64,000 bases of DNA. Source: an uncultured Candidatus Binatia bacterium (lineage in GTDB: Bacteria > Desulfobacterota > Binatia > Bin18). Position numbers and translations under genes: made by a program. The stretch covers positions 2,816,001-2,880,000 of the forward strand of contig OZ241744.1 of NCBI GenBank assembly GCA_965200965.1, read 5' to 3'. The notes under the pieces were generated by a model, which had not been told where the DNA came from, made no database searches, and saw only the letters and a list, made by a program, of their open reading frames with translations. Each line of letters begins with the position of its first letter. The first letter of the stretch is position 1. Shown in pieces: positions 9,901 through 44,943 of this stretch.

Positions 9901-12900
9901 CTCCGGAGACTCGGCGTGCCACGGGACTTCGGTCTATCCCCGCGTGTGCGGGGGAACCACTACGCTCGGCTGGCTGCCGCGTCTTGAATACGGTCTATCC
10001 CCGCGTGTGCGGGGGAACCCGATCCGCGGGCCTTTGGTCCCGTGCGCAAATGGGTCTATCCCCGCGTGTGCGGGGGAACCCGCTGCGTCGTCAAGGCGTT
10101 GTCAAACCGCCCAGGTCTATCCCCGCGTGTGCGGGGGAACCACAGGTAGAACGGTTGCTCACTATTCCCCAGAGGGTCTATCCCCGCGTGTGCGGGGGAA
10201 CCCATCGGTGTTAGGCGCTCGGTGCGTCTTCACAAGGTCTATCCCCGCGTGTGCGGGGGAACCGCGTCAGCCGGGATTGTAGCCTCTCCTGCCTCGGGTC
10301 TATCCCCGCGTGTGCGGGGGAACCTCTTTATCTCAGCGGTGGAGCAGCTATCCAAGAGGTCTATCCCCGCGTGTGCGGGGGAACCACAGGCATCGAGGAG
10401 AGCACGGGCCGCATGGACGGTCTATCCCCGCGTGTGCGGGGGAACCACCCAGTTAGCCGACTGACGGAAATATTCCAACGGTCTATCCCCGCGTGTGCGG
10501 GGGAACCAGAATCCCCCGCCCGCTTGGTGGCAGACCCGTAGGTCTATCCCCGCGTGTGCGGGGGAACCACAAGGTCAATCAGAGCCTCAATCAGATATGG
10601 AGGTCTATCCCCGCGTGTGCGGGGGAACCCTGGACCAGCCGGAGGCGTAAATGGCATTCTGGGGTCTATCCCCGCGTGTGCGGGGGAACCACCTTCAGGC
10701 GAGAACCGCCTTGAGCAACCCCAGGTCTATCCCCGCGTGTGCGGGGGAACCATCGAAACAGGAGCCAGTACCCAACCGTTATAGGGTCTATCCCCGCGTG
10801 TGCGGGGGAACCGTTCAGCCCGATTTCGGTACGGTATGGATAGGCGGTCTATCCCCGCGTGTGCGGGGGAACCGAGGATCGCCAGTCGGCTTCCGGGTAT
10901 GGACGCGGTCTATCCCCGCGTGTGCGGGGGAACCCGTCATCTTATCTCCGAGATCGACATAGCCAAAGGTCTATCCCCGCGTGTGCGGGGGAACCTCCAC
11001 TGGCAAGAGCCGGTCGTTCGGCACGAAGGGTCTATCCCCGCGTGTGCGGGGGAACCGCCAACACGCATCGTCGATGACGCTGACGGTACGGTCTATCCCC
11101 GCGTGTGCGGGGGAACCCATGCGAGTATTGCCGGGTAGCGAAGAAGCAAAGGTCTATCCCCGCGTGTGCGGGGGAACCACCCAGTTAGCCGACTGACGGT
11201 AGTACTCCAGCGGTCTATCCCCGCGTGTGCGGGGGAACCGCTGGTAAGCGGGAAACCAAGTATCGCGTGACAGGTCTATCCCCGCGTGTGCGGGGGAACC
11301 CGTCTGATATTTCGGCGACAAAGCGCGGTTGGAGGTCTATCCCCGCGTGTGCGGGGGAACCAATCGAACCGACCTTCATAGCGGAATGTAAAGGGGTCTA
11401 TCCCCGCGTGTGCGGGGGAACCCCCATCCAGTCGATACGACCTTCGAACCGGAAGGGTCTATCCCCGCGTGTGCGGGGGAACCTACGGCAGCCTACCGTA
11501 CAGATAGTTGATCGCGGGTCTATCCCCGCGTGTGCGGGGGAACCGACGGGCTTCCTACTTTCGTGAGACGCTGAATGGGTCTATCCCCGCGTGTGCGGGG
11601 GAACCACTATGGTCCGGCGGCTGGGCGGTGGTGGCGCAGGTCTATCCCCGCGTGTGCGGGGGAACCACTTGCTTGCAAGTCATGCGCAACCGTCGTCACG
11701 GTCTATCCCCGCGTGTGCGGGGGAACCACCGAGACCAAGGCGGAAACGACGATACGCGGGGGTCTATCCCCGCGTGTGCGGGGGAACCCATCGCCCGATA
11801 TCCAGGCCCAGGCTGTGCGTAGGTCTATCCCCGCGTGTGCGGGGGAACCACCACAGACCAATCGAGCCCGGGCAAGAAAATAGGTCTATCCCCGCGTGTG
11901 CGGGGGAACCGCCGCCCAACCTTCTTCGTAGATGTGCCTCAGCGGTCTATCCCCGCGTGTGCGGGGGAACCGCGGAGCGCCCGGGCGCTGGGCCGCGTTG
12001 ATTGGGTCTATCCCCGCGTGTGCGGGGGAACCACTTCCAGAAGACGGGAGAATGGCGCTGGTTTGGGTCTATCCCCGCGTGTGCGGGGGAACCTGCAAGA
12101 CCTGAGCGATCATTGCGCGATGTTGGGGTCTATCCCCGCGTGTGCGGGGGAACCGTCCGACAGTAGATGATGCTCACATGCCGTCTCGGTCTATCCCCGC
12201 GTGTGCGGGGGAACCACTGGCTGACCAATGTCAGATGCACCAGTCTTGGGTCTATCCCCGCGTGTGCGGGGGAACCGTTCAGCCCGATTTCGGCACGGTA
12301 TGGGTCGGGGGTCTATCCCCGCGTGTGCGGGGGAACCACTCGGCCTTCCTGGCTCAATACGGTGTCCAGGGGTCTATCCCCGCGTGTGCGGGGGAACCAC
12401 AATCTGGCTCAACTCGGCTGGCTCTGGCCTCGGTCTATCCCCGCGTGTGCGGGGGAACCGTCAAGCGGGGAGCTCGTATCGTCCCAGTACGGGGTCTATC
12501 CCCGCGTGTGCGGGGGAACCGCTGCCCTGCGTCGTTGGCTGATGCCTTTGCGCGGTCTATCCCCGCGTGTGCGGGGGAACCCCCGTCGGCTTGGGCTGAT
12601 GTGTGGTCCGAGGCGGTCTATCCCCGCGTGTGCGGGGGAACCAGACACCACAGCCAGCCATGTTCCGAGAAGAACGGTCTATCCCCGCGTGTGCGGGGGA
12701 ACCAGACATATATGCCACCCGGCGATTTTCTCGCCAGGTCTATCCCCGCGTGTGCGGGGGAACCGCAGCTGCTCCGCTCCACTGGCATCTGGCCGCGGGT
12801 CTATCCCCGCGTGTGCGGGGGAACCCGAAGGAGAAAATGACCCAGTGGGAATACATAGGGTCTATCCCCGCGTGTGCGGGGGAACCCGATTTAGCCATGC

Positions 12901-15900
12901 TATCGATCCACTTTCGAAAGGTCTATCCCCGCGTGTGCGGGGGAACCGGCCCTATCGCGTCTCATCATCGCCGGTCAGGAGGTCTATCCCCGCGTGTGCG
13001 GGGGAACCGCTCATATCCGGTACTAAAGTACCAGTCCGGAAGGTCTATCCCCGCGTGTGCGGGGGAACCACATGGATCCAGCGCCCAAACTCGGAAATGA
13101 CTGGTCTATCCCCGCGTGTGCGGGGGAACCTAGTGAATCTCACCACGCGATCGGACATGCTGAGGTCTATCCCCGCGTGTGCGGGGGAACCGGCCCTGGA
13201 GCCACCAACCAGGCGCAATCCAAGGGTCTATCCCCGCGTGTGCGGGGGAACCATGCATCTGAGGCATCAGGCATCCTCCCGAAAGGGTCTATCCCCGCGT
13301 GTGCGGGGGAACCTGGCAATGGATGAAGGGGCATGGGTGAAATTTAGGTCTATCCCCGCGTGTGCGGGGGAACCCGATAACGTGGACAACTCCAAGCCTC
13401 CCCAGGCGGTCTATCCCCGCGTGTGCGGGGGAACCACACCTCCTCTCTTAACTCGATCGTCTTGCTCCGGTCTATCCCCGCGTGTGCGGGGGAACCCCGG
13501 CCTTGGTAGAGGTACGCTGCAGGGCCTGAGGTCTATCCCCGCGTGTGCGGGGGAACCTATCCTGGACGAGCTCGGCGAACTAGAGGAGTGGGTCTATCCC
13601 CGCGTGTGCGGGGGAACCTCACTGGATGTAATCGCGCAGGCGGGCATCCAGGGTCTATCCCCGCGTGTGCGGGGGAACCACTGGCTAAGTCCGGCCTGGT
13701 CCCTGAGGTCCAGGTCTATCCCCGCGTGTGCGGGGGAACCGTCCGGCGCTCAACGGTGATCTGACATCCCGCAGGTCTATCCCCGCGTGTGCGGGGGAAC
13801 CGCACCAATGCCCAGGACGGGCCGAACCTGAACAGGTCTATCCCCGCGTGTGCGGGGGAACCCGTGCCCAGAAGATGGCTATTGGAGGTATCAGGGGTCT
13901 ATCCCCGCGTGTGCGGGGGAACCCAGTCAAAAACAGCATCCACCACGACCGACGGAGGTCTATCCCCGCGTGTGCGGGGGAACCGACTTTGGCACGGTCT
14001 GGCTTGGTTGGTCGATGGGTCTATCCCCGCGTGTGCGGGGGAACCACCCAATTAGCGCTTTGCCTGAAATACTCAAGCGGTCTATCCCCGCGTGTGCGGG
14101 GGAACCCTCGTGCGTCCAGTGCTACTGATCGGTGCTGCAGGTCTATCCCCGCGTGTGCGGGGGAACCTCACTGGATGTAATCGCGCAGGCCGCCATCCAG
14201 GGTCTATCCCCGCGTGTGCGGGGGAACCATCTGCTGGATACTGGTGTAGTCTCTGGCACGGGGTCTATCCCCGCGTGTGCGGGGGAACCTGATATGGCCT
14301 TCTCGTTCTGCCACGGAAGGACGGTCTATCCCCGCGTGTGCGGGGGAACCCTTCTTTGTCTCTTGCCACTTGGGATGGGTCCCGGTCTATCCCCGCGTGT
14401 GCGGGGGAACCACTTTCACCAAGGAGGTGGAGAGTATCCGGGGGGGTCTATCCCCGCGTGTGCGGGGGAACCCCGAAACGGGCCGGCGCATAGTAGAACC
14501 AATAAGGTCTATCCCCGCGTGTGCGGGGGAACCCTCGGACCGGAATATCCGGTCCGAATCCTATTGGGTCTATCCCCGCGTGTGCGGGGGAACCCCTGAC
14601 GCCGGCGAGATATTTGCTTGGCTCTCAGGTCTATCCCCGCGTGTGCGGGGGAACCGCCGGTGCCGGTAGAGGTCTACTGTCTGGTCTCGGTCTATCCCCG
14701 CGTGTGCGGGGGAACCATTGCCTGGACTTATGGGCGTATCTACGACAATGGTCTATCCCCGCGTGTGCGGGGGAACCAAGATAGGCCTGGATAGCCACAC
14801 GCATGGGCCGGGTCTATCCCCGCGTGTGCGGGGGAACCATGTCCGAAATGCCTTTAAGGCCCAGTACTGTCGGTCTATCCCCGCGTGTGCGGGGGAACCG
14901 AAAGATAATCGCGCATGACCTTACCACGGCGCGGTCTATCCCCGCGTGTGCGGGGGAACCCAGCGTGACCCCCGGCCGGTCATCCCAGACTGCGGTCTAT
15001 CCCCGCGTGTGCGGGGGAACCGATTACAAGGTGTACCGGAGAGCATCCAGCCGCGGTCTATCCCCGCGTGTGCGGGGGAACCAAATCTTACGCGATCACG
15101 GGTAAGGCCCGATGCGGTCTATCCCCGCGTGTGCGGGGGAACCGAGGACGGACTATGAAGAAGAAGCTCAAACCCAGGTCTATCCCCGCGTGTGCGGGGG
15201 AACCAACGATGCGACACCGACTGTGAGAAGGGTATCAGGTCTATCCCCGCGTGTGCGGGGGAACCGGGACGCGACCCCGAACTGAAAGAGTTCACAGGGG
15301 TCTATCCCCGCGTGTGCGGGGGAACCTTCCACTACGGACAAACTCACCTTATCGGGATGGGTCTATCCCCGCGTGTGCGGGGGAACCGGGGCTATGTTCT
15401 TCGTGCTGAATCGTTGCAGCGGTCTATCCCCGCGTGTGCGGGGGAACCATAAGCTCTGCGTTTACATCAGTCTCGACCGGGGGTCTATCCCCGCGTGTGC
15501 GGGGGAACCGTGGCGACCGAGAACTGACACATATCCCGGCCGGGTCTATCCCCGCGTGTGCGGGGGAACCACAGCTATCGGAAAGATGGATAAACCCAAA
15601 GCGGGTCTATCCCCGCGTGTGCGGGGGAACCGATGACCCTCATGCATCACCTTCAATCTCAAGAGGTCTATCCCCGCGTGTGCGGGGGAACCAGACATAG
15701 CCATCTTCCTGATTTCTTCCTTCTGGGTCTATCCCCGCGTGTGCGGGGGAACCCAGCCCAACCTCCGCCAGCGGGATTTCCTGGCCGGTCTATCCCCGCG
15801 TGTGCGGGGGAACCGCTGACGAACTCTATTCCCTGGCGGCGCTCAGCGGTCTATCCCCGCGTGTGCGGGGGAACCGAGCTTTCGCCGCGTCCACGAACAG

Positions 15901-17583
15901 CCTGTAGAGGTCTATCCCCGCGTGTGCGGGGGAACCGCCTATTGATCGCTCCCTTCCCTGACCTCTGCCGGTCTATCCCCGCGTGTGCGGGGGAACCGCC
16001 GTGGCGGTGGCCTCGGAGCCGTGAAGAGCGGGTCTATCCCCGCGTGTGCGGGGGAACCTATCAGAACATCCCCGCCGTAGTAGTCAGCCACGGTCTATCC
16101 CCGCGTGTGCGGGGGAACCGCCGCCAAGGACGCCAAGCTCACGGGCAAGTCAGGTCTATCCCCGCGTGTGCGGGGGAACCCACTATTCGGACGGATACCA
16201 GGCAGATACGGCAGGTCTATCCCCGCGTGTGCGGGGGAACCTGGAACATCAACGACCACACCGAGCTGGAAGTGGGTCTATCCCCGCGTGTGCGGGGGAA
16301 CCCCCAACATCCGCTTTCATCCAACTCTTCCTACCGGTCTATCCCCGCGTGTGCGGGGGAACCAGCGCCTCAAACCGGGCGTTCATCAACGCAAACGGTC
16401 TATCCCCGCGTGTGCGGGGGAACCCCGCTGCCCGGTTAGGATACTGCATGAGGACCAGGTCTATCCCCGCGTGTGCGGGGGAACCTCTCTGAGATTTCAC
16501 AGATCACAACCCCAAGCGGGTCTATCCCCGCGTGTGCGGGGGAACCGCCGTGAGCCGGGGATAGTCTCTCAATCCAGGAGGTCTATCCCCGCGTGTGCGG
16601 GGGAACCGCGGCGTCATCGCGCTCCTCGTCGAGTCGGCACGGTCTATCCCCGCGTGTGCGGGGGAACCCTGCTGAAGTCAAATATGACGTCCGTATTCAA
16701 CGGTCTATCCCCGCGTGTGCGGGGGAACCCTGGGGATGGCTCATGCTGTTGCCCCTTGCTTCGGTCTATCCCCGCGTGTGCGGGGGAACCTAACCAACCG
16801 CCCCTTCGGGGGCAATCCCAAGAGGTCTATCCCCGCGTGTGCGGGGGAACCATGACGTACCGAGCAAGCGCGAAGGCTATGGAGGGTCTATCCCCGCGTG
16901 TGCGGGGGAACCAGAAACCATCGGCCTAGGCGGGGTTTTGGCAGAGGTCTATCCCCGCGTGTGCGGGGGAACCATGCTGAAGATCATGCACGAAAAGCTC
17001 ACTGAGGGTCTATCCCCGCGTGTGCGGGGGAACCCCGCCAGCCCTCGCGCCATCGGGGTAGCCGTCAGGTCTATCCCCGCGTGTGCGGGGGAACCTATTC
17101 CTGGCCCGAAAATCCCGACGGGGTGAAGGGTCTATCCCCGCGTGTGCGGGGGAACCGTCTACAGCGAGGTCCATGATCTCGCCGTCAGCGGTCTATCCCC
17201 GCGTGTGCGGGGGAACCAGCTTCGCCATCGTGTCCTCCTCAATCTCAAGAGGTCTATCCCCGCGTGTGCGGGGGAACCGTCACATCAGCATAAGTCAGGG
17301 TCAAAAAGTAGGGTCTATCCCCGCGTGTGCGGGGGAACCACGCTAATGTGGTCCGGCGTGGGCATTGCGTCGGGTCTATCCCCGCGTGTGCGGGGGAACC
17401 AGTACCGTTGTCAGCCATTAGGGAGCCTCCGAAGGTCTATCCCCGCGTGTGCGGGGGAACCTGGACGACGCCGAGGATAGCGAAACCAATAGGGGGTCTA
17501 TCCCCGCGTGTGCGGGGGAACCTCCCACAAAGGACGGTATGAGACGCCCAAGAAGGGTCTATCCCCGCGTGTGCGGGGGAACC
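3954..17583 (-). CRISPR. Type I-E CRISPR array, ~224 repeats / ~223 spacers
   Basis: Repeat in transcribed sense is GGTTCCCCCGCACACGCGGGGATAGACC (28 bp; stem CCCCGC/GCGGGG), period 61 bp. Spacers are 33 nt (two of 32, one of 34). Leader lies next to cas2. Confidence 0.99.
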
Positions 17584-17661
17584 TCTCCTGATTTTATTAC
17601 ACTTTTGGCGCACTGCGTCCAGCGTCGGGTGTGGGAAGACGCGATTCGGATTGTCAAAGAG
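17584..17661 (-). promoter_or_regulatory. Short CRISPR leader with putative promoter
   Basis: 78 bp between the cas2 stop and the first repeat. CTCTTTGACAAT motif and a -10-like TAAAAT (17596-17591) 7 nt before the repeat. Confidence 0.6.
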
Positions 17662-17973
17662 CTAGGTATCCTGACCCGGACCCGGGCCGGTTCGCCTGGA
17701 GAGAATGACACCCTCCTGATCTACCAGCTCGACGGGGGGCGTGCCAAGGACGCGCACGGACTGCCCGCTTGGCTGGCGCGAGTCCTGCCAGGTCATGACA
17801 ATGGACCGCCCCCCAAGCCCGAGGAACCAGTCTGAGATCACTGCCCATATGCGGTCCCGGACACGCGCGGAGAGTCGTGGGGCGGTGTAGACCCCCGGCG
17901 CAATCTCCAGCATGCACGAGGCCAGAAACCCGCGGATGCGCGGGGCAACATCACGGGTGACTATGACTGTCAT
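17662..17973 (-). CDS. cas2: Type I-E Cas2
   Basis: MTVIVTRDVAPRIRGFLASCMLEIAPGVY...VRDRIW; directly follows cas1. Confidence 0.95.
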   Translation of the reverse strand: MTVIVTRDVAPRIRGFLASCMLEIAPGVYTAPRLSARVRDRIWAVISDWFLGLGGRSIVMTWQDSRQPSGQSVRVLGTPPVELVDQEGVILSRRTGPGPGQDT

Positions 17974-18832
17974 CGTCGTCAATCAACTGGATGATCCGGT
18001 CAATCATCTTTGTGATGAGTTTTGTCTGTCTGAAGCGCCGACCGGCCAGCCGTCGGACATGCCGTTCAAGCGGGATATGTCCGTTTGCGGAGTAGTGGCT
18101 GACCGCTTCAAAGGCGACCGGGATGGTGACTTCGGTCCTATACAGGTCTGCAATGTCGAGACAAAAGGCAATGGAAGCGTCCTCGTGGACAAAGCCGAGC
18201 GGGGGCAGGGTTCCAGTGGCGGCGACGGCCACAAGGGCCGCGGCTTCGGTGGCCGTCGCCGCGTGGTTGATGGCTTGATTGGGGTCGTCGGCTATGTCGG
18301 GGCGCTGCCTGTCGTAGCGGCGTCCGTACCAGTCAATGCCGTAGCGCTCGGCCAGCAGGCGGTAGGATTCTTTCATCCGGGCTCCTTCGATCCCGCGCAT
18401 GATGGCGATGTCCTGTTCGGGCAGGACTTCGCCCAGCCGCCAAGCGTACATCCGGCGGGCGGTCCGCAGCCGTGACCGTCGGTCGTTCCAGAGTTTCGCC
18501 TGACGGCGTGCTCGTCGTGAGTCGTTCGGCCCAAAGGGCTGGGCACTGTACATGCGCACGCCGTCTTCCCCAACGGCAACAAGGCCGGTCCCGTGTCGGG
18601 CCAGCAGCCGGAAAACGTCGTGGCTGACGGTTGAGCCAGGCCCGAGCAGAATGAATGAGATATTCTGAAAGGGGATGGCATAATCGCCGGCCTGCATATC
18701 CGCAGACCCGGCGGTGCGAAACCGCAAGGTCCCATCCTCTACGGTGAGATTTCCCCGCGCCAGCCACAACAGGCCGTGGCGGTCGGCGTGGGGGATCCGC
18801 GCCTCCTCCAGTCCTAATCTGCCTTTCAGCAC
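17951..18832 (-). CDS. cas1: Type I-E Cas1
   Basis: LLGPGSTVSH, RGIEGARMK, NQAINHA, LGFVH, DIADLY motifs; GTG start. Confidence 0.97.
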   Translation of the reverse strand: MLKGRLGLEEARIPHADRHGLLWLARGNLTVEDGTLRFRTAGSADMQAGDYAIPFQNISFILLGPGSTVSHDVFRLLARHGTGLVAVGEDGVRMYSAQPFGPNDSRRARRQAKLWNDRRSRLRTARRMYAWRLGEVLPEQDIAIMRGIEGARMKESYRLLAERYGIDWYGRRYDRQRPDIADDPNQAINHAATATEAAALVAVAATGTLPPLGFVHEDASIAFCLDIADLYRTEVTIPVAFEAVSHYSANGHIPLERHVRRLAGRRFRQTKLITKMIDRIIQLIDDDDSHSHP

Positions 18833-18834
18833 TG

Positions 18835-18862
18835 GGTCTATCCCTGCGTGTGCAGGGGAACC
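18835..18862 (-). repeat. Solo variant CRISPR repeat at the cas6e/cas1 junction
   Basis: GGTTCCCCTGCACACGCAGGGATAGACC is 26/28 identical to the array repeat; the two changes are a compensatory C-G to T-A pair in the stem. Confidence 0.92.
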
Positions 18863-19596
18863 GCCTTGGCGGCCGCGGGACGCAAGAGCAGCATTCCATA
18901 GCCGTAGGCGCGGTGCCGGCCAATGCCCCGGGCCAGCAGTTCGGCGAAGGTCCCGGCATTAGTAATGGTGAGGGTGCCCCGCATGAGCGCGTCCGGCCCC
19001 TCGCTAGAACGGGCGTGTCGCTTGCGAATAGCGCGGCTGCGCTGAAAGGATTGCAGGCCTGCCTTGCCTTCCAACTTTGCCCCGCCATGCCGCCCGAACT
19101 GCTTGGCCAGCCAGTCGCTATAGACCTCTTCACGGCTGCGCTTCATTTTCCTGTCCGGGTCCTCCTTCGGGTGCTGAAGGGCTTCCCATAAGAAAGCGTC
19201 GCACTCCGTATCTGCGCAATCGCCTGCACCACGGGGACGGCGGATAATGGGACGCACCCGCGTCTCAAAGCCGAGGCGCTTGCCGGTCTGCCAGGCTGCC
19301 GGCATGGGCTTGCTGTCGAGGCTGGCGGCAGGAATTACCCTGGCTTGGAGCGGGCAGGCATGGATGTCAGCCTCGGCGCGCAGGGCTTCGGCGTCAGCCT
19401 GCCCATAGCCGTACAGAACGCCGCGGGGCTGAGCGCGGCCGATCATCAGCCGAAAGGGCTTGGGGGCCAGTTCGCCGAACATTTCGGTCAGCAGGCAGTG
19501 CATGGCGTGGTCGCTGTCCTGCAAGCGCCTGGAGCCGGCCCAGCGCTGGAGGTTTTGCGCGTCTATGTCGGCGCGTATCATGTGGAGTGAGGCCAT
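18838..19596 (-). CDS. cas6e: Type I-E Cas6e (Cse3/CasE)
   Basis: C-terminal GIGRHRAYGYGMLLL Gly-rich loop. Start MASLHMIRAD follows AGGAG. Confidence 0.95.
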   Translation of the reverse strand: MASLHMIRADIDAQNLQRWAGSRRLQDSDHAMHCLLTEMFGELAPKPFRLMIGRAQPRGVLYGYGQADAEALRAEADIHACPLQARVIPAASLDSKPMPAAWQTGKRLGFETRVRPIIRRPRGAGDCADTECDAFLWEALQHPKEDPDRKMKRSREEVYSDWLAKQFGRHGGAKLEGKAGLQSFQRSRAIRKRHARSSEGPDALMRGTLTITNAGTFAELLARGIGRHRAYGYGMLLLRPAAAKAVPLHTQG

Positions 19597-19598
19597 AG

Positions 19599-20321
19599 TC
19601 AGGACTCCTTCCTGAAAGATGAATCGTTGCCTTCGCACACCAGCCGCCCGCCGCCGTGCAGGCCGGATAGCCAGTTGCGTTGGTCGGTAAGCGGATAGCT
19701 CCGGCTGGGGGCAATCGTTTCGATACCTTCGCCGTCGGGCCACAGCAGTTGTCGGGGGGTCGGCTCATCTGGTTCGGGGGCGCACAGGGCGGCCAGGGCG
19801 GTAGCGCCGTCGCGGCACTCGGCAAACAGCGGCGCTGAGGGCAGACACGGTTTGCGCCCGATGAACAGCGGACGCGCCGGCTCTTGCAGCGCCTCGGCTA
19901 GGTCGTCCAGGGTTGGCGCGTCGTCTGGCGGTTCCAGGCGCACGGCGAGGCTGACGCGCATATCGGCGAAGTAGTCGCGGTAGCGCAGATGGGGCGCGTC
20001 ATAGGTCTTCTGGCCGCCGGTCCGACCCTCGGGCTGTCCGCGCGTGGTCCAGGCCGTATCTTTGTCCCCGAGTTGCGCGGTCTGAAAGTCGGTCAGATGC
20101 GCATCGCCGGCCGGCTCCCGGTCAATGCGGGCGGCGAAAATTAGCCGGTCTTGCAAGTGCTGATGCTGCTCTCGCTGGGTGCGTCGCCAGCCCAGGGCAT
20201 TCGCGAACAGGCCGGTCAGCATGGACGCCGCGGGAAACTGGCGGATGACTCCATAATTGTCAATTGTCTCACCGCCAAAGGCCATAAGCGGGCTTTCCAG
20301 GTTCAGGATCAGATGCCGCAT
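19599..20321 (-). CDS. cas5e: Type I-E Cas5e (CasD)
   Basis: LILNLESPLMAFG, FPAASMLTGLFANALG, RDYFAD, LFIGRKPCLPS. Confidence 0.96.
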   Translation of the reverse strand: MRHLILNLESPLMAFGGETIDNYGVIRQFPAASMLTGLFANALGWRRTQREQHQHLQDRLIFAARIDREPAGDAHLTDFQTAQLGDKDTAWTTRGQPEGRTGGQKTYDAPHLRYRDYFADMRVSLAVRLEPPDDAPTLDDLAEALQEPARPLFIGRKPCLPSAPLFAECRDGATALAALCAPEPDEPTPRQLLWPDGEGIETIAPSRSYPLTDQRNWLSGLHGGGRLVCEGNDSSFRKES

Positions 20322-20323
20322 GA

Positions 20324-21538
20324 CTAACTCACCTCACCGTTGCGAACCGCGGCCGCGGCCCAGCTCGCCAGGTCGTCCAGGCACACGCGCTCGGCGTTGG
20401 GCAGATCGCAGTCTCCAACAGACATGATCCGCCGGCGCTCACGCACCCCATAGGCCGTATCGAGTTTGCCCAGATGTGTAGACAGGGCATCCGTTGCCGC
20501 GGCCACTTGGGGCTGAACTGGGTCGCGGAAGGCGTTAGCCAGGCTGCGCGGCTGGCGCACTCCGGCCTCAACCAGCATCAGGTCGGCGCAGCTATAGGGG
20601 GCGGTTGAGCCCAACTTTGCCCCGGGCGAGACAGTAGCAATGAGATGAAGCAGATGCTCAATCACCTTGCCGGCCAAGGTCGTATCCGCGTTCTTCCAAT
20701 CGCTGGCCGGGCAGCCCTCCAGGTTGGAAACCAAGCCTGGAACGTCCACCACCGCATAGCCGTAGAACAGCCCCGCGGTCAGTTCTACATCGCCGATGTG
20801 AGCCGCGCCGGCATCTTCGTCTTTTCGTTGAAGGTCGTCCACCACCGAGAAGTAATCGCTTTCGCTCTCTTCCTGATGCACGGTAAAGGCATGAGCGACA
20901 TGAACGGCGGCGTCAATGTTCGCGCCGGGGTCAGATGTCACCATGCGACCAAACAGCGCGCCTTCCAGCCCGCCGGGCAGGCGTGCCTGTTCCCGGAAAG
21001 CGCGAAAGTTGTTGCCTTCACCAAGTGATTTCTGTTTGAAAAGGTCGTCGGCAGCCGTCTTCGCAGCCTTGGCATCAGTGGGATGCTCAATACAGATCAC
21101 CCTAGCCTTCTCCTGAAGGTATTCAACTTCGGGAAGGCCGAGCAGAAGGGTCTGCCGATTTTTTCTGTCTTCCGCCTCCTTTGCGCCTTTCTCGTCTTTC
21201 TTGTCGCCCTTATACACGCCGTTGTTGAAAGCCTTCTTGACCGCATTGAGCACATCCTCTGCGACTTCGCCGGCCTCGCATAAGGGTTGTAAGGGCGGGA
21301 TTACCTTTTGCTCGACAACATTCCGGGAGCGTATCGCTTCCGCCGCGCCAGAAATGTTGCGGAGGGAGAACTCATCTTCCGCTACCCGCCAGTGTCGCTT
21401 GAGACACTGCGACGATATGCGGGTCCGTACCGCGCCGCCAAAAGGCATCCGCTTGGCGAGGCCGCTGTCATCCCGGTTCAGCAGGGCCGCCGGGTAGGAA
21501 TGCAGGGTATGAATCTGGAAAAAACGTGCTGTGGTCAT
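20324..21538 (-). CDS. cas7: Type I-E Cas7 (Cse4/CasC)
   Basis: IHTLHSYPAALLNRDDSG, RISSQCLKR, ALFGRM, VAHAFT, DYFSVVDD. Confidence 0.97.
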   Translation of the reverse strand: MTTARFFQIHTLHSYPAALLNRDDSGLAKRMPFGGAVRTRISSQCLKRHWRVAEDEFSLRNISGAAEAIRSRNVVEQKVIPPLQPLCEAGEVAEDVLNAVKKAFNNGVYKGDKKDEKGAKEAEDRKNRQTLLLGLPEVEYLQEKARVICIEHPTDAKAAKTAADDLFKQKSLGEGNNFRAFREQARLPGGLEGALFGRMVTSDPGANIDAAVHVAHAFTVHQEESESDYFSVVDDLQRKDEDAGAAHIGDVELTAGLFYGYAVVDVPGLVSNLEGCPASDWKNADTTLAGKVIEHLLHLIATVSPGAKLGSTAPYSCADLMLVEAGVRQPRSLANAFRDPVQPQVAAATDALSTHLGKLDTAYGVRERRRIMSVGDCDLPNAERVCLDDLASWAAAAVRNGEVS

Positions 21539-21565
21539 GGTCAATCTCCTTGTGGTGATGCTGTG

Positions 21566-22162
21566 TTAGTCTGTTGATTGCGGGGCATTGCGCCGCTCGG
21601 CCTGATAGTAGGTGCGGGCGATACCGCGGCGTGCTGCTTCGGCCTGTTTTTCGTTATAGCCATCGTTCAGGATGAAGAATGTCATTTCACGCCAGTTGAA
21701 GGGTTGGTTGGCAGCGGCCAACATGCGGAACAGCCGTGCCAGCAGAACACGCAGCATCGGCCCTCGTGCCGTCAGCAGTCGGTTCAGGCGTGTCTCGCTG
21801 TAGAAAGCGGCTGTCCGCCGGGCGTCACCGCCGAAGAACAACGCTCGGCCAACAGGCATCGATCCGTCGTGGGCGGAGCGTCGGTCAGCCGTGCCGGTCA
21901 TCAGCGCGATGCCGTGCAGGATGAGCGCCCATTTGCGTTCGAGGGTGGGGTTGCCCAACAGTTCCCGGTATGCCAGGAGCCGCCAGAAGGCCGCTGCATC
22001 GGGGGCGTCCGGGTCCATGCGCCGCAATTCGGCTAGATCGCCCCGGCGAAAATCGGGCTGTGATAGAACATGGGCAAAACCCGCCGCAATAGCGTCCCAA
22101 GTCTGCTGTTCGCCTTCCAGCGTCGGCGTAGCGGACGCTGGAAGAGGTTGCCTATGTGTCAT
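21566..22162 (-). CDS. cas11: Type I-E Cas11 (Cse2/CasB)
   Basis: GDLAELRR, SETRLNRLL, IARTYY; lies between cas8e and cas7. Confidence 0.88.
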   Translation of the reverse strand: MTHRQPLPASATPTLEGEQQTWDAIAAGFAHVLSQPDFRRGDLAELRRMDPDAPDAAAFWRLLAYRELLGNPTLERKWALILHGIALMTGTADRRSAHDGSMPVGRALFFGGDARRTAAFYSETRLNRLLTARGPMLRVLLARLFRMLAAANQPFNWREMTFFILNDGYNEKQAEAARRGIARTYYQAERRNAPQSTD

Positions 22163-23763
22163 TCCTGGTCCTCCTTATTCGCTTCGTCAAACAGAAACGG
22201 CAGTCCTTTCGGTCTACGGAGCCGCCCCTCAAACAGCCCCTCGGCCTTGACCCGGGCGCGGTAGCGGTGAATGGCCGGGCAGGGCAGGGTGGCGGTTGCG
22301 TCTTGCAGGATGCGGCGGGCGTGGTCAATCACGCCGTCTTTGCGGTTCATCAGCCACGCCTTTCGGATGCGCTTGCGTTTGTCGTCGTTGTCGGCCTCAA
22401 ACTCGGTTTGCAGGTCGTCAAAGAATCGGGCGTCAACGATTGCGTCCAGCCTGTCCGACCAGGGATTTGCCAGCGTGCGGTGCTCCGAGCTGGTCTTGTC
22501 ACCCTCACCGCGGGCGGCAAACGTTGCGATAGCGCGGCGCACGATGCTCTTCACAGTGCCAATCTGCTCAATACGCTCTTGGGCGAGGTCGCCCAATTCC
22601 TGAGCCTGTGCACTGTTGCGGCGCAGCATAGCTGTTCTGGCCTTGCTCCTGATGGGGATGATGCGTTCGTGATAGCCTTCGGTCATACCCTGCTTTCTGG
22701 TGTTGCATTTTAGACTTCGGGCGACGAGTTGCATCGTTTCCGGGGAATGCTGTTCAGACGGTGTTGGCTTCAGCAGGACCGGGTGTTCCCAGTCGGCCGA
22801 GATCAGGTATTTCTTCACCAGATCATAGGTAAAACCCTTTGGGCCGATATTGAGAGCTTCGCCCTTTGTCGTGTTGATGGGGGTCCACGGGTCGCCTGTA
22901 CGCCCTTTGATCTTCTCTGCCTCAATTCGTGTCGCGTCCGAGTTTGCCTTGAGGCCGCTGAGCTTGCCGTCCGTCCCGAGGCGCAGGCGGACACGCCGGC
23001 AGACCTCGATGTAGTAGGGGGCGAGTTCGACCAGCGGCAGTTTCTCCGCCTTGGTCCCATCCCAGGGGATGGTCCAGAGTAGGCCGATATCGCCATTGGT
23101 CAGAGAGAGATCATCCATCCGTTCCAGTAGGGCTATGATATCCCGCCGGGCGTGCGCACCCGGTCGTAGGGAGGGTGTGAGGCTGAACGCTGGGCGTCCA
23201 GAATAAGCGCTCTTGAGCCTAGAAACAGAGTAATTGCCACGACCGTTCTGAGCCGAGGTAGTTTGCAGGGTAATCAGCGCAAACAACCAAGCGTCTACGC
23301 TTGCCTCGGTCGCCACCTCCGATTTGAGGTCGTGGTTCTTGGACGTGACCAGCATATCCAACTTGTCTGGAGTTGGGAGAATGTTCTTTTTGTCCTCCTC
23401 GGCTCTCTCGTAGGTATCGGCCTTGTCTGCGGAGGCCGGCGGCTGCATGAAGGCCGGTTCTGTGATGTCATTCACCACTACCTGCCAGGGTTCGTCGTCT
23501 GGATAGTCCGGCGTCAGTCCACGGATCAGGGCCACCCACTCTGCCGCGTTCTCCGGTGGTTCACCGCGGCCGGCCCGGCGCAGTGCCATCACCCCGAGCT
23601 GGACGAGAAAGGCGTGCCAGGCGTGACGCTGGTGGGGGCGCAGTGCGGGAAAAGTGTTTACCTCGTCCTGCATCAGCGCAGCGAAGATCTCCGGCAAGGA
23701 GACCTCCACGCCCGCGCCTGCCGTATCCATCCGAATCAATGGTTCCGTGAGAATGTTGAGCAT
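22159..23763 (-). CDS. cas8e: Type I-E Cas8e (Cse1/CasA)
   Basis: MLNILTEPLI start, FPALRPHQ..WHAFLVQL, AFMQPP, EVCRRVRL, GDPWTP. Confidence 0.92.
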   Translation of the reverse strand: MLNILTEPLIRMDTAGAGVEVSLPEIFAALMQDEVNTFPALRPHQRHAWHAFLVQLGVMALRRAGRGEPPENAAEWVALIRGLTPDYPDDEPWQVVVNDITEPAFMQPPASADKADTYERAEEDKKNILPTPDKLDMLVTSKNHDLKSEVATEASVDAWLFALITLQTTSAQNGRGNYSVSRLKSAYSGRPAFSLTPSLRPGAHARRDIIALLERMDDLSLTNGDIGLLWTIPWDGTKAEKLPLVELAPYYIEVCRRVRLRLGTDGKLSGLKANSDATRIEAEKIKGRTGDPWTPINTTKGEALNIGPKGFTYDLVKKYLISADWEHPVLLKPTPSEQHSPETMQLVARSLKCNTRKQGMTEGYHERIIPIRSKARTAMLRRNSAQAQELGDLAQERIEQIGTVKSIVRRAIATFAARGEGDKTSSEHRTLANPWSDRLDAIVDARFFDDLQTEFEADNDDKRKRIRKAWLMNRKDGVIDHARRILQDATATLPCPAIHRYRARVKAEGLFEGRLRRPKGLPFLFDEANKEDQE

Positions 23764-23945
23764 ACGTCTGCTTTCCCTTTCAGTCGCTTCTGGTCAGAAG
23801 CGTGTCTGTTCTGTACCCTTACTCGCATCGCCCCGTATTGAGTCTGCAACGTCAGGGACGCAGGAGAGGGGAGGACAGCGCGAACAGCGGCAATATCCGG
23901 TATCACCATTTCCACCAGGGCTTCGGTAGCCTTGTTTTGTTTCAT
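23736..23945 (-). CDS. 69-aa ORF of unknown function between the promoter and cas8e
   Basis: Strong RBS (AAAGGAG-AAAAA-ATG) just downstream of a TTGACA promoter; no family recognised. Confidence 0.45.
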   Translation of the reverse strand: MKQNKATEALVEMVIPDIAAVRAVLPSPASLTLQTQYGAMRVRVQNRHASDQKRLKGKADVCSTFSRNH

Positions 23946-23973
23946 TTTTTCTCCTTTCTTTTAGACATAGACA

Positions 23974-24001
23974 TTGAAACACAAAAATTAGATGTTAGAC
24001 T
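23974..24001 (+). promoter_or_regulatory. Divergent promoter for the mini-array
   Basis: TTGAAA, 16-nt spacer, extended -10 TGtTAGACT, ~17 nt upstream of the first degenerate repeat. Confidence 0.5.
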
Positions 24002-24013
24002 TGGATTTGTCAA
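23985..24013 (-). promoter_or_regulatory. Sigma70-type promoter for the small ORF and Cascade genes
   Basis: TTGACA (24013-24008), 17-nt spacer, TAATTT (23990-23985), in an AT-rich gap. Confidence 0.75.
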
Positions 24014-24018
24014 GCTTT

Positions 24019-24101
24019 GATTCCCCGCACGGGGATAGACCGTTTTGTGTTGCGATGTCAAACATCGTGCTCAAATTTCCCCGCACACGCGGGGTTGTCC
24101 T
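24019..24101 (+). ncRNA. Mini-CRISPR / crRNA-like regulatory RNA (CreR/CreA-like)
   Basis: Degenerate repeat TTCCCCGCACGGGGATAGACCG, ~31-32 nt spacer, degenerate repeat TTTCCCCGCACACGCGGGGTTGTCC. The spacer matches 23986-23968 on the minus strand. Confidence 0.85.
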
Positions 24102-24127
24102 GTGGTGTCCGGGGCTGTGGCGGTCCA

Positions 24128-26941
24128 TTACATCCGACGCAGTCCCAGACGGTCGTATTGGAATCGGGCGTCACCGAGGCGGAAGGTGAAGCCGCCGGCG
24201 GTCAGCTCGGGCGCGACCGGCTCGTCGCTGGCCAAGTCACGCGCCAGATGGTTGGGAATGGCTATCTGGGAGATCGTTTCGCCGGTGAAAGGGCTGGACG
24301 GGGCCGGCTCTAACTCAACCGCTATGCCCTCATCGCCCAGCCGCGTGCGTATCTTCTCTTCCAGAGAGCCAAAAACCACGTCCTGGTTGTCCGTGAAAAA
24401 GGACTTATCGCGCCGGACGATGGCGCTCCGGGCGGTCAAGCCCTCGGCCAATTCCGCCCCCATCATGCTGTTGGCGTGATCCCGCCAAGCGTCGCCCAGC
24501 TCTGTGGTAATGGCTTCCAACGCCTCGGGGTGGGTCGTTCGTTCGACCAGCTCCCGGTTCATCTCCGGGATGCGCCACGGTCTGGCGTTCTCGGTATGCT
24601 CTACGATCAGCCGTCGCGTAGCCTCCAGGATGCGCAGGTCCTTATACACATGACCGTGCGGCCCCAAGCCGTTTCGGCCCGGCCCTTGAGGAGTGAACGT
24701 GTCATCAGATTGACCGGAAGGCGACACATTGACTCCTTTTGCCAGCAGGGGCGAGAGATCGGCACCCGCCGGCAGCAGCACGACGCAACTCGGCGTCTCA
24801 TAGCCGGGCGGGCGATCGTGCCGTTGGTGTCGGTGCAGGCGGCCAATTCGTTGAAGCAGTACGTCCATCGGGCACAGGTCGGTTATGAGCAGGTCGGCAT
24901 CAATATCGAGGGACTGCTCCAGGGTCTGGGTCCCCACAATAATGCGCCCGCCGGCCGGCCGGTCTTTGCCGAGTTGCTCTTCAACCGCTCTGTCGAGGTG
25001 GCGGCGGTCACTGGCGGCGAACCGGCCGTGGTGGAGGGTGGGAGTGCCGTTGCAGGCGTACAGCAGGCCGCGTTCGTCAGACAGGGCCGTTTTTTCCAGG
25101 GTCTGCTGGGTGTTGATCGCGTGGCCGACTGTGTTGCGAATGACCAGCACCTTCGCCCCGGTGCGGGCCGCGTGCAGGGCGCGTTCGGCCACCTGAGCGA
25201 AGTCATCCATAGCCGTGGCCTCAATCTGTACCGTTTTTTCTTTGCCAAAGATGAACCGTGTCGCCGTCCTCTCGTTCGGGTAAGACGATTTATCTTCATT
25301 GTGAGCGACGGCGATCATCTGTTCACCACCGCCGGCCTGGGTTGTGACCGCGGGGTAGGGGGCGGTGATGGTTTCACCGAGTGGCGGAAGGTCCTGCAAA
25401 CCGGATACCCAGCGACGACGTGCCACCGCACCTAGCGTGGCCGACATCAGCACCGCGTAGCCGCCGGCCCCGATATGGGCGTCAAGCAGAGCTTTGAGAA
25501 TGGCCCGCATATACGGGTCGGAGGCGTGGACTTCATCCACGACCAGCAGGTGACGCGCCAGGCAGGCGGCGCGCAGATGGGCGTGTTTCACCTTGAGGGC
25601 TGCCATCATGGCCTGGTCTACCGTGCCCACGGCAATTTGCGCTGCCAAGTAGCGCTTGGCGCTTTCGGCGGCCCAGCGGCGTTTTCCGGTGGCGACACCG
25701 GGATCATCGTCCCACCAGACCTCGTAGTTCGGCAACTGCCGACCCTCGGCGGTGCCGGCGCGCAGATAGCCGGGGACGGCTAACACCGGCTCCGGTCGGT
25801 GTTTGTTAGGGAACAGATTGGCAATGAAGCGCGTGACGCGCGCGTGCATCTGGCTGGCCGCGGCCCTGGTCGGCAGGGCAAAATACAGCCCGTCCACCAG
25901 TTCGGCCTGATACAGTTGGGCAAAGCGCCACAGGGCGGCCTCGGTTTTCCCAGAACCGGTTTCGGACTCGATGATGACCAGCCGCTCATCCGTCGGGACC
26001 GCCCTTACCACCTGCTGGACAGGGTTGGGCGTGGCATTGGGAAGGCTGAACAGCGGGCCGAAGTCGGGGAGAGCCGGCAAGGAGTGCGCGTGTCGCCTTC
26101 CGGTCGATCTGATGACATGTTCACTCCTCAGGGTGCGAAAAGCGGTCCGCTGACTTTTCAGGTTCAGCCCGATTTCCGAAACCGCCCGCTGGGCGTTTTG
26201 GCGCGCTGTGCTGATGTAGTTGTCGCGCGGCTCGGCGCAAAACGGAAAATTGCGCTCATCGGAGCCGATCCAGTCGGCCAGTATGCACAGGCCCAGAAAC
26301 ATATGCTGGAAGGCGGACGTGGACGGCAGGGGCGGCGCATCGGGACTGAAGGCCAACGGGAACCAGTGGCGCACGAGCTGGCTGATGCGCTCCACATGAC
26401 TTTTGGGGTGCAACTTGCCAAAGTCACGCCATACTTTGGGGTTGGGGTGTCGCACGCCTAGTTGCAGGGGCGAGCCGTGATGCGACAGCGCAGCGATGAA
26501 CAACCCGCACACGGTCTCGCCCTCGCCGGCGTCCCAACTCAGCAAATCATCCCACCAGCCCAGGGCGTCAAAGAACCAAGCGGATGTTGTCGCATCAGTG
26601 CCATTCAGGACCGGCGTCAGGTCGGCGATGTGACCGGCGCGATGTGGCATTTTCTTGTCCGCTGGCGCGTCCGCGGGCTGCCAGATCTGCGTCTGAAAGC
26701 CGATGTTGACCTTACCGATGTCGTGGAGGGCGGCAAAGACGGCCAGCCGCGCCGCGGTTGCGTCGTCCAGCCTGTCCAGCCCGCCGGCCCGCGCCAGGCC
26801 TTGCCCGATGGTCGGCTGCTCCAGCAGGGCCTTAAAGCAGACCCCCACATCGGCCATGTGGTGCTCTAACAGATGGATACGCTGTGGGTTTTCTCGGTCC
26901 GATTTTGCCCAGAAGGCCCGGGTGTAGGCTGTGGCTGTCAT
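24128..26941 (-). CDS. cas3: Cas3 HD nuclease/helicase
   Basis: FWAKS, HDIGK, LADWIGS, ETGSGKTE, DEVH, MSATL, QSLDIDAD, QRIGRLHRH. Confidence 0.98.
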   Translation of the reverse strand: MTATAYTRAFWAKSDRENPQRIHLLEHHMADVGVCFKALLEQPTIGQGLARAGGLDRLDDATAARLAVFAALHDIGKVNIGFQTQIWQPADAPADKKMPHRAGHIADLTPVLNGTDATTSAWFFDALGWWDDLLSWDAGEGETVCGLFIAALSHHGSPLQLGVRHPNPKVWRDFGKLHPKSHVERISQLVRHWFPLAFSPDAPPLPSTSAFQHMFLGLCILADWIGSDERNFPFCAEPRDNYISTARQNAQRAVSEIGLNLKSQRTAFRTLRSEHVIRSTGRRHAHSLPALPDFGPLFSLPNATPNPVQQVVRAVPTDERLVIIESETGSGKTEAALWRFAQLYQAELVDGLYFALPTRAAASQMHARVTRFIANLFPNKHRPEPVLAVPGYLRAGTAEGRQLPNYEVWWDDDPGVATGKRRWAAESAKRYLAAQIAVGTVDQAMMAALKVKHAHLRAACLARHLLVVDEVHASDPYMRAILKALLDAHIGAGGYAVLMSATLGAVARRRWVSGLQDLPPLGETITAPYPAVTTQAGGGEQMIAVAHNEDKSSYPNERTATRFIFGKEKTVQIEATAMDDFAQVAERALHAARTGAKVLVIRNTVGHAINTQQTLEKTALSDERGLLYACNGTPTLHHGRFAASDRRHLDRAVEEQLGKDRPAGGRIIVGTQTLEQSLDIDADLLITDLCPMDVLLQRIGRLHRHQRHDRPPGYETPSCVVLLPAGADLSPLLAKGVNVSPSGQSDDTFTPQGPGRNGLGPHGHVYKDLRILEATRRLIVEHTENARPWRIPEMNRELVERTTHPEALEAITTELGDAWRDHANSMMGAELAEGLTARSAIVRRDKSFFTDNQDVVFGSLEEKIRTRLGDEGIAVELEPAPSSPFTGETISQIAIPNHLARDLASDEPVAPELTAGGFTFRLGDARFQYDRLGLRRM
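24689..24737. repeat. 49-bp palindromic element, in frame in cas3
   Basis: AGGAGTGAACGTGTC...GACACATTGACTCCT; related copies at 26080, 61462 and 62620. Confidence 0.85.
25248..25296. repeat. Diverged 49-bp palindromic element, in frame in cas3
   Basis: AAGATGAA...TTTATCTT inverted ends and GTGTCGCC core; ~29/49 ungapped identity to the 61462 copy. Confidence 0.55.
26080..26128. repeat. 49-bp palindromic element, in frame in cas3
   Basis: AGGAGTGCGCGTGTCGCCTTCCGG...GACATGTTCACTCCT; opposite orientation to the 24689 copy. Confidence 0.85.
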
Positions 26942-34505: not shown

Positions 34506-35087
34506 TCAGGCTTCCACCAGGGCGTCCAGCCGTCGGCGATTGTTACCGATGTCTTCCTCCAGGCTGCGGACGCTGCGCTCAAAGGGCCGCAGCATGGTCC
34601 GCCGGTCCCACAGGGCAAAGCCGAGAATGGCCGCGACCAGGGTACTGAAGGCGGCCAGCAGGGCCAGGGTGAGGTGGAACTGCCGGGCAAACTGCCCGGT
34701 CATCTCTTCCCGCAACTGCTGCATCTGTTGGCCGATGTCGGTGCGGAGTTGCTCGTTCTGCCGGTTCATATCTTCCCGGAGTTGCTCGTTCTGCCGGTTC
34801 ATATCTTCCCGGAGTTGCTGCATATCCGCACGGAGTTGCTCGTTCTGCCGGTTCATATCTTCCCGGAGTTGCTGCATATCCGCGCGGAGTTGCTCGTTCT
34901 GCCGGTTCATATCTTCCCGGAGTTGCTGCATATCCGCACGGAGTCCGCCCTGCCCCTCTTCAAGCCGTGCCAGCCGCTCGGCGATCTCCCGGTCAGGCAA
35001 GGCCGGCGTGGCCTCCACCGCCCCGGCCGGGTGAGGCAGGAGCAGCCCGGTCAGGAGGACGAGCCAGGCGACACGCAGCTTGCTCAT
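34506..35087 (-). CDS. Signal peptide + coiled-coil + TM protein, copy A (premature TGA)
   Basis: QLRADMQ/QLREDMNRQNE repeats and a TM helix. Lacks the last 21 aa of copy C because TTG is replaced by TGA. Confidence 0.75.
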   Translation of the reverse strand: MSKLRVAWLVLLTGLLLPHPAGAVEATPALPDREIAERLARLEEGQGGLRADMQQLREDMNRQNEQLRADMQQLREDMNRQNEQLRADMQQLREDMNRQNEQLREDMNRQNEQLRTDIGQQMQQLREEMTGQFARQFHLTLALLAAFSTLVAAILGFALWDRRTMLRPFERSVRSLEEDIGNNRRRLDALVEA

Positions 35088-44394: not shown

Positions 44395-44943
44395 TCAGGC
44401 TTCCACCAGGGCGTCCAGCCGCCGGCGATTGTTGCCGATATCTTCCTCCAGGCTGCGGACGCTGCGCTCAAAGGGCCGCAGCATGGTCCGCCGGTCCCAC
44501 AGGGCAAAGCCGAGAATGGCCGCGACCAGGGTACTGAAGGCGGCCAGCAGGGCCAGGGTGAGGTGGAACTGCCGGGCAAACTGCCCGGTCATCTCTTCCC
44601 GCAACTGCTGCATCTGTTGGCCGATGTCGGTGCGGAGTTGCTCGTTCTGCCGGTTCATATCTTCCCGGAGTTGCTGCATATCCGCGCGGAGTTGCTCGTT
44701 CTGCCGGTTCATATCTTCCCGGAGTTGCTGCATATCCGCGCGGAGTTGCTCGTTCTGCCGGTTCATATCTTCCCGGAGTTGCTGCATATCCGCACGGAGT
44801 CCGCCCTGCCCCTCTTCAAGCCGCGCCAGCCGCTCGGCGATCTCCCGGTCAGGCAAGGCCGGCGTGGCCTCCACCGCCCCGGCCGGGCCGGGCAGGAACA
44901 GCCCGGTCAGGAGGACGAGCCAGGCGACACGCAGCTTGCTCAT
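44395..44943 (-). CDS. Coiled-coil TM protein, copy B (premature TGA)
   Basis: Near identical to copy A minus one 33-bp repeat. Confidence 0.75.
   Translation of the reverse strand: MSKLRVAWLVLLTGLFLPGPAGAVEATPALPDREIAERLARLEEGQGGLRADMQQLREDMNRQNEQLRADMQQLREDMNRQNEQLRADMQQLREDMNRQNEQLRTDIGQQMQQLREEMTGQFARQFHLTLALLAAFSTLVAAILGFALWDRRTMLRPFERSVRSLEEDIGNNRRRLDALVEA

Follow-up and report, generated by a model that had tools for sequence, protein, structure and literature searches.

What is a lone CRISPR repeat doing between cas6e and cas1 of a complete type I-E operon, where it holds the stop codon of the first gene and almost touches the start codon of the second? The question is raised by the window analysed here, a stretch of 64,000 nucleotides from an uncultured Candidatus Binatia bacterium (contig OZ241744.1, positions 2,816,001 to 2,880,000), whose minus strand carries a complete type I-E locus according to NCBIfam profile matches. 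A previous, sequence-only reading of this DNA had proposed that the repeat works as a Cas6-operated switch in the very mRNA that encodes Cas6e. Below, the window's own I-E locus is called G000 and the loci compared with it carry L-numbers. The features on which the argument turns are the following.

18835-18862, minus strand: solo CRISPR repeat of 28 nt, 26/28 identical to the array repeat
18842-18857, minus strand: predicted Cas6e hairpin with a 6-bp stem, an ACAC loop and a U-A pair between 18854 and 18845 (predicted fold)
18838-18840, minus strand: cas6e stop codon TAG, within the 3' handle of the solo repeat (read in the sequence)
18830-18832, minus strand: cas1 start codon GTG, 5 nt past the cas6e stop and 2 nt past the repeat end
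18838-19596, minus strand: cas6e, 252 aa, its final 8 codons encoded by the repeat (TIGR01907, 55.6 bits)
17951-18832, minus strand: cas1, type I-E (TIGR03638, 291.7 bits)
17662-17982, minus strand: cas2, type I-E (TIGR01873, 77.9 bits)
3954-17583, minus strand: CRISPR array of 224 identical 28-nt repeats with a period of 61
19599-26941, minus strand: effector genes cas3, cse1, cse2, cas7 and cas5, upstream in the same operon (NCBIfam matches), namely
24128-26941, minus strand: cas3
22159-23763, minus strand: cse1
21566-22162, minus strand: cse2
20324-21544, minus strand: cas7
19599-20321, minus strand: cas5

The solo repeat reads GGTTCCCCTGCACACGCAGGGATAGACC and all 224 array copies read GGTTCCCCCGCACACGCGGGGATAGACC, in the same minus-strand orientation as the cas genes. 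The two sequences differ at position 9 (C to T) and position 18 (G to A) only, and these positions are partners in the 6-bp stem, where a C-G pair has become U-A and pairing is kept. A full-length repeat in the sense orientation of the cas mRNA, distinguished from the array by one compensatory stem pair, is what the sequence-only reading had described, and on both points it was right. Its range of 18830-18862 extends beyond the repeat proper, which occupies 18835-18862; the rest belongs to the 5-nt gap between the genes and to the cas1 GTG at 18832-18830 on the minus strand. The hairpin is present in the minimum-free-energy fold of the 28-mer alone as well as in that of its 111-nt surroundings, with a predicted energy of -13.9 kcal/mol for the solo copy and -15.4 kcal/mol for the array repeat, and the 3' handle is intact at 7/7 positions.

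The copy stands by itself. The nearest array repeat lies 1279 nt away, there is no regular alternation with spacers, and no second repeat unit was found near it at 18 or more of 28 matching positions. Outside the array it is the sole match to the repeat in the window at up to 6 substitutions. The whole genome contains 225 repeat matches, all within this locus, and 100 shuffles produced no match at up to 3 mismatches. What follows the repeat is the cas1 coding start itself and not a spacer with complementarity to a cas promoter, and the operon that harbors it is complete and chromosomal and not part of a virus or mobile element.

The repeat is at the same time coding sequence. The cas6e frame runs through it, reading ...RPAAAKAVPLHTQG* and ending at the TAG at 18840-18838, which bears out the earlier statement that the repeat encodes the end of cas6e, that is the last eight codons and the stop. 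On the other side, the start position of cas1 is conserved across relatives, and its only Shine-Dalgarno (SD)-like stretch is indeed the AGGGA in the 3' arm of the repeat, ending 8 nt before the GTG. Pairing of this stretch with a generic anti-SD sequence is weak (-4.9 kcal/mol, compared with a median of -7.6 kcal/mol in the 12 nearest loci), and within its group of 13 loci G000 has the weakest cas1 SD; of the 62 others, 61 have a stronger one. A stop-to-start distance of 5 nt combined with the weakest SD of the group fits translational coupling between the two genes. A consensus scan found neither a sigma-70-like promoter nor a terminator on the minus strand between 17400 and 19800, and the cas genes are therefore likely co-transcribed; no Rfam family matched at an E-value of 1 or below in 17300-24300.

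How could such a junction work? The cleavage chemistry of Cas6e, and its habit of staying bound to the product, have been worked out with the enzymes of E. coli and T. thermophilus, and by analogy we take the cut in G000 to fall between 18842 and 18841. According to the proposed mechanism, a near-intact repeat from the operon's own array has replaced the cas6e-cas1 spacer, and in the polycistronic mRNA it is predicted to fold as a Cas6e hairpin, which Cas6e would likely bind and cut. On the uncut mRNA, ribosomes reaching the end of cas6e would open the hairpin and then reinitiate at the GTG, which lies 5 nt beyond the stop, and this would be the main source of Cas1. Cleavage at the 3' base of the stem would split the last sense codon of cas6e and deprive the gene of its stop. 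The effector genes and cas1-cas2 would also come to lie on different molecules, the latter on an RNA that begins with a 5'-OH and has a leader of 9 nt lacking an SD, so that the uncut mRNA would be the productive form. Free Cas6e would thereby reduce its own output together with that of Cas1 and Cas2. Having weighed the comparative evidence set out below, we regard the proposition that the solo repeat functions as a site in the cas mRNA where Cas6e binds and cuts as evenly poised.

The distribution of the repeat suggests that it arrived late. Nine Cas6e loci were found in 60 related genomes and none of them has a repeat at the junction; two of them have an array behind cas6e, and in the others the spacer carries a strong SD. 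The 12 loci that share the Cas1/Cas2 type of G000 likewise lack a repeat-like junction match (0/12), and a pattern scan of metagenome contigs returned no cas1 start with the end of a pristine repeat 20 nt away or less. Among the best 120 of 2441 homologues, two Cas6e proteins have a tail encoded by the repeat, the window's own and one that is 91% identical (P0002). When contigs of four public DNA runs were aligned to 18400-19300, three near-identical haplotypes with the solo repeat came to light. One contig is identical to G000, a second haplotype differs at 6/699 positions (0.9%), none of them in the repeat, and a third, from run X11, differs at 16/699 (2.3%). The junction is unchanged in both the 0.9%-diverged haplotype and P0002, which counts in favor of a Cas6e site. 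The X11 haplotype, on the other hand, pairs T9 with the canonical G18 and has a changed base at position 10, and with this wobble and mismatch the stem structure is not strictly maintained. Taken together, these findings suggest that the solo repeat was gained recently and in this lineage only. The contigs of runs X4 and X11 also differ from the window within cas6e, where an 82-nt piece (window 19098-19181) is replaced by 91 other letters; these letters fit P0002 (255 aa, 91% identical), which makes cas6e a mosaic between near-identical strains.

The sequence around the repeat gives some indication of how it came in. Alignment with the spacers of the nearest relatives leaves only AGGCGG in common before the repeat, and the comparison is suggestive of a replacement of about 20 nt, including the old TGA and SD, by which the G000 repeat displaced the spacer; in relatives, this spacer supplies the stop codon together with a good SD. 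A donor spacer was sought in the array, where the best end matches the upstream flank of the solo copy at 9/12 positions and the next best at 7, too weak a match for a donor to be named. As for the stem pair, another genome, L062, has a normal array repeat with T at position 9 alone, and the related haplotype combines T9 with G18; both point to a path through a wobble and not to a simultaneous double change. The likeliest history is probably a copy with a U.G wobble, from which the G000 line gained the G to A change and the other line lost the pair. Such a stepwise origin would make the compensatory pair, real as it is, a less strong sign of selection than a simultaneous double change.

If the nearest relatives offer no precedent for the junction, more distant ones do. 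Our comparison set comprises 80 loci, one genome per species, mostly from Dehalococcoidia, Candidatus Binatia and Caldilineaceae metagenome-assembled genomes (MAGs). In 74 of them cas1 follows cas6e; 12 are of the Binatia type and the other 62 form a sister clade, mostly of Dehalococcoidia MAGs. In four loci cas6e is followed by a full array, with no cas1 within reach. In the sister clade, 18/62 junctions match the array repeat of their own locus at 18 or more of 28 positions, and three of these 18 hold mini-arrays (L049 with 2, L083 with 3 and L059 with 4 repeats); counting altered hairpins that were chosen by eye in six more loci (L047, L052, L055, L062, L084 and L100) brings the number to 24/62. 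The check suggested by the sequence-only reading, a search for the hairpin at the cas6e-cas1 junctions of I-E relatives, thus came out negative among the closest relatives (0/9 and 0/12) and positive in the sister clade. Outside the junctions and the main arrays, the background amounts to 21 matches at 18/28 or better in about 676,000 windows. Six of these 21 are genuine repeats at other cas borders: two repeats between cas7 and cas5 (L039:1582-1670), three between cas5 and cas6e (L094:2329-2478), and a single hairpin, containing a U-A pair, immediately upstream of cas7 (L069:492-519). L075 was considered as another locus with its repeat in the reading frame of cas6e and set aside, as an ordinary stop precedes that repeat.

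The pattern of conservation in these junctions is uneven. Within the 18 loci, the two stem arms agree best with the array repeat of the same locus, at identities of 0.97 and 0.94, followed by the A behind the stem at 0.89; the 3' handle reaches 0.65, the loop 0.56 and the 5' flank 0.47. Eight pairwise alignments of whole spacers tell the same story, with stems identical at 95/96 positions and the remainder at 35-88%. Across 20 aligned solo hairpins, 98.3% of the stem cells are paired, a value reached by 3/500 shuffles and biased upward by the choice of the set, whose members were taken for having a hairpin. Independent double changes in the stem occur in G000 and L047, and unpaired cells in L051 and L062. 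The sister clade has thus kept the stem that Cas6e recognizes and lost the parts that serve guides and arrays, which argues that a Cas6e hairpin before cas1 does something, and suggests that it is useful rather than accidental. Nonetheless, conservation of the stem could also serve DNA-level needs of spacer integration. In metagenomes, 75 I-E loci gave 52 distinct junctions, 43 with a cas1 start, and none of these 43 matches a repeat at 18/28 or better; cas6e and cas1 are at most 15 nt apart or overlap in 34/43.

The wiring differs between the two groups. Most sister-clade loci have their SD downstream of the hairpin, at times built from the old handle (L063, L078 and L080), so that cutting there would leave a translatable cas1 RNA. 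The arrangement of G000, with the SD in the hairpin arm, is therefore not general, and the common denominator would be the separation of the adaptation message and not repression as such. A second feature of the sister clade is the motif GCACCTTAACAAC(C/T)GAATA (GCACCTTAACAA...GAATA), which follows the cas6e stop in 55/62 loci (for instance L025, L029 and L063). This CACCTTAACAA motif occurs in 0/12 Binatia-type spacers and is also absent from the G000 junction. Where cas6e is followed by an array (L065 and L098), the motif stands ahead of the first repeat; at the main arrays, 64/65 loci lack it in the vicinity of the first repeat. The motif may be a leader or a promoter.

Is the G000 hairpin descended from those of the sister clade? 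The Cas1 and Cas2 proteins of the compared loci fall into two classes: Cas1 of the 12 Binatia-type loci is 80-93% identical to that of G000 and the rest 51-67%, and the corresponding values for Cas2 are 76-87% and 43-59%. The effector proteins have no such split over all loci (Cas7 63-78%, Cas5 45-82% and Cas6e 53-69% identity to G000), and the cas6e-cas1 border is thus the boundary of two modules with separate histories. The two-class split of Cas1 and Cas2 also indicates that sponge-type MAG lineages belonging to different phyla have exchanged adaptation and effector modules. A Cas1 tree was calculated in a quick IQ-TREE run with 72 rows, three short ones having been dropped, while the careful search is unfinished. 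On this quick tree the hairpins cluster in one subclade (14 solo hairpins and 2 mini-arrays among 21 members) and occur also at the base of the sister clade, and G000 is sister to the hairpin-less L021 (support 96), inside a hairpin-less clade of 12. Common descent of the G000 hairpin with those of the sister clade is not what the quick tree yields. Nested as it is in a hairpin-less Cas1 clade, the G000 repeat represents a second, independent arrival at the junction.

A late arrival at a module boundary may of course be no more than an inert scar. By this account the nearby array recently served as the template for the copy, or the repeat is what remained when an array once lying between the effector and adaptation modules collapsed; a usable stop and start would have resulted by luck, nothing would be regulated, and Cas1 would be made through translational coupling. 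The confinement of the solo copy to one shallow lineage fits this account, as do the separate module histories on the two sides of the junction (the split in Cas1/Cas2 with none in Cas7, Cas5 or Cas6e), the full arrays or mini-arrays of 2-4 repeats that occupy the same place in L065, L096-L098, L049, L059 and L083, and the decay of the stem in the X11 haplotype. The large array, which gives no sign that adaptation is damped, fits as well. A scar would hardly be expected, however, to have both of its changes from the array repeat keep the pairing, and neutral decay predicts something other than what the old solo hairpins of the sister clade display, which is a retained stem with lost flanks. 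In addition, if it folds at all, a hairpin whose contacts are identical to those of 224 processed repeats can hardly escape Cas6e. We treat the scar, the main rival of the Cas6e site, as possible but unlikely.

A different function for the same DNA would be that of a minimal array, an array with zero spacers, maintained as DNA to give Cas1-Cas2 a second site for spacer integration. It is true that relatives have 1, 2, 3, 4 or many repeats at this place, and that the CACCTTAACAA motif stands upstream in 55/62 sister-clade loci just as it stands before the first repeat of the L065 and L098 arrays. Yet G000 has neither motif nor leader, its repeat merges into coding sequence at one end and stops 2 nt short of a start codon at the other, and integration would disrupt the cas6e stop and the cas1 start; moreover, the repeat ends and the handle have decayed in the old solo copies, and the main-array leaders are without the motif in 64/65 loci. 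We consider this explanation improbable. We give hardly any credence to a decoy based on the handle, in which the 5' handle AUAGACC and the first ~33 nt of the cas1 mRNA would load Cas5 and Cas7 and either block cas1 translation or soak up Cascade subunits: the handle of G000 is intact (7/7) and phage solitary repeats that trap Cas proteins are known from one report (PMC10651486), but there is no second repeat to set the 3' end, and the handle, just 65% conserved in the sister clade, is not the part that selection has preserved there.

This returns us to the Cas6e site and to the strength of its presumed effect in G000. Because the hairpin is part of the last eight codons to be translated, ribosomes may keep it open. 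That the array comprises 224 identical repeats means that adaptation has been active with this junction in place, which is an argument against a strong brake on adaptation. A translated hairpin, its weakening in one haplotype and the vigorous adaptation evident from the 224-repeat array thus speak against a strong switch. The anatomy given by the sequence-only reading was correct, and its interpretation as a switch is partly supported.

Could the two arrivals reflect one principle? We tentatively put forward, as a doubtful possibility, that Cas6e is a guide-independent post-transcriptional regulator which binds and cuts a repeat hairpin directly ahead of cas1, with the free enzyme left over from crRNA processing setting the output of the adaptation enzymes and, in G000, also its own. 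The device would have been installed at this border at least twice, anciently in the Dehalococcoidia-type clade, where only the stem was kept, and recently in G000. Over-active adaptation genes risk the acquisition of self-targeting spacers. The self-regulation of CRISPR-Cas systems known to us proceeds through guide-like RNAs (tracr-L, CreR and mini-arrays) or through host transcription factors. If true, the present proposal would add a simpler and different layer, in which the processing enzyme senses its own excess and splits or silences the adaptation message. The comparative pattern, a stem kept before cas1 in ~30% of one clade while the rest decays, makes the Cas6e site testable.

G000 also seems to possess a regulator of the established kind. 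Between cas3 and cse1, at 24014-24101 on the plus strand, lie two degenerate repeats, 60 nt apart, which agree with the array repeat at 18/28 and 20/28 positions. They enclose a spacer of 32 nt (24042-24073), whose first 20 nt agree at 16 positions with a single site of the window, near 23987-23966 on the minus strand; this target directly follows a promoter-like TTGACA-17-TAATTT that faces cse1. The element looks like the known CreR or mini-array type of I-E autoregulator. If the reading of the solo repeat as a Cas6e site is true, the repeat would add a second, guide-independent layer beside this mini-array. Between the promoter-like site and cse1 there is also a 69-aa open reading frame (23736-23945, minus strand) with a strong SD, AAAGGAG, which overlaps the cse1 start by 28 nt. 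Elsewhere in the window, perfect 54-nt tandem arrays are found at 34744-34944 and 44632-44800, about 10 kb apart; between them, at 37940-40992, 21-nt and 17-nt matches recur every 1506 nt, three times, and a perfect 75-nt repeat with 2.5 copies (63580-63765) lies near the window end.

How does the solo repeat compare with known systems? A close counterpart is the type I-E pre-crRNA hairpin processed by Cas6e (CasE, Cse3), with which it shares the sequence class, the orientation, the 6-bp GC stem, the 4-nt loop, and the A after the stem together with the handle. Unlike a pre-crRNA repeat, it is embedded in an operon of protein-coding genes, where it covers a stop codon and borders on a start codon, and its cleavage would process an mRNA and not make a guide. 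Engineered Cas6f (Csy4) hairpins are used to cut polycistronic mRNAs; these tools are synthetic and belong to another subtype, and they embody the same principle as our reading of G000, a Cas6 hairpin that separates cistrons. In the literature searched, the scope of which ended short of subscription journals and the supplements of PMC10120712, we found no description of a repeat at the cas6e-cas1 border, of Cas6 cutting cas mRNA, or of a natural counterpart of Csy4-type cistron separation inside a cas operon.

Standalone repeats of type I-E are known mainly from positions beside cas3 and cas8e, between the two genes, where, according to a survey, they form mini-arrays with a spacer that pairs with the cas8e promoter (PMC10120712), and CreR RNAs of types I-B, I-E and V-A are said in a second report to work as those mini-arrays do (10.1101/2023.03.10.532045). 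G000 resembles both in having repeat-derived sequence outside the array, within the cas locus, as a candidate for autoregulation. Mini-arrays and CreR RNAs consist of two degenerate repeats and a spacer that pairs partly with a cas promoter, and act through Cascade as a guide, whereas the solo repeat of G000 has one repeat, no spacer and no promoter target; any action it has would be guide-independent RNA cutting. The survey is described as scanning intergenic regions (PMC10120712). The G000 junction falls into the blind spot of any survey limited to such regions, with a gap of just 5 nt and a repeat that is annotated as coding.

Solitary repeats of phages act as RNA anti-CRISPRs (Racrs) that engage Cas6 and other Cas proteins without guiding, according to two reports (PMC10651486; PMC8616872). 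Similar to Racrs as portrayed there, the solo repeat is a single repeat without a usable spacer; Racrs are viral small RNAs directed against the host's CRISPR-Cas system, in contrast to the G000 copy, which is chromosomal, lies in sense orientation in a cas operon and forms part of the translation signals of two genes.

Nearest of all in position are the Dehalococcoidia-type cas6e-cas1 hairpins, which share the junction, the orientation and the stem with G000 (18/62 loci at 18/28). Those hairpins are old, degenerate outside the stem and located after a motif, with the SD mostly downstream. The G000 copy, in comparison, is pristine and without the motif, overlaps the cas6e stop, carries the cas1 SD in its arm, and arose separately.
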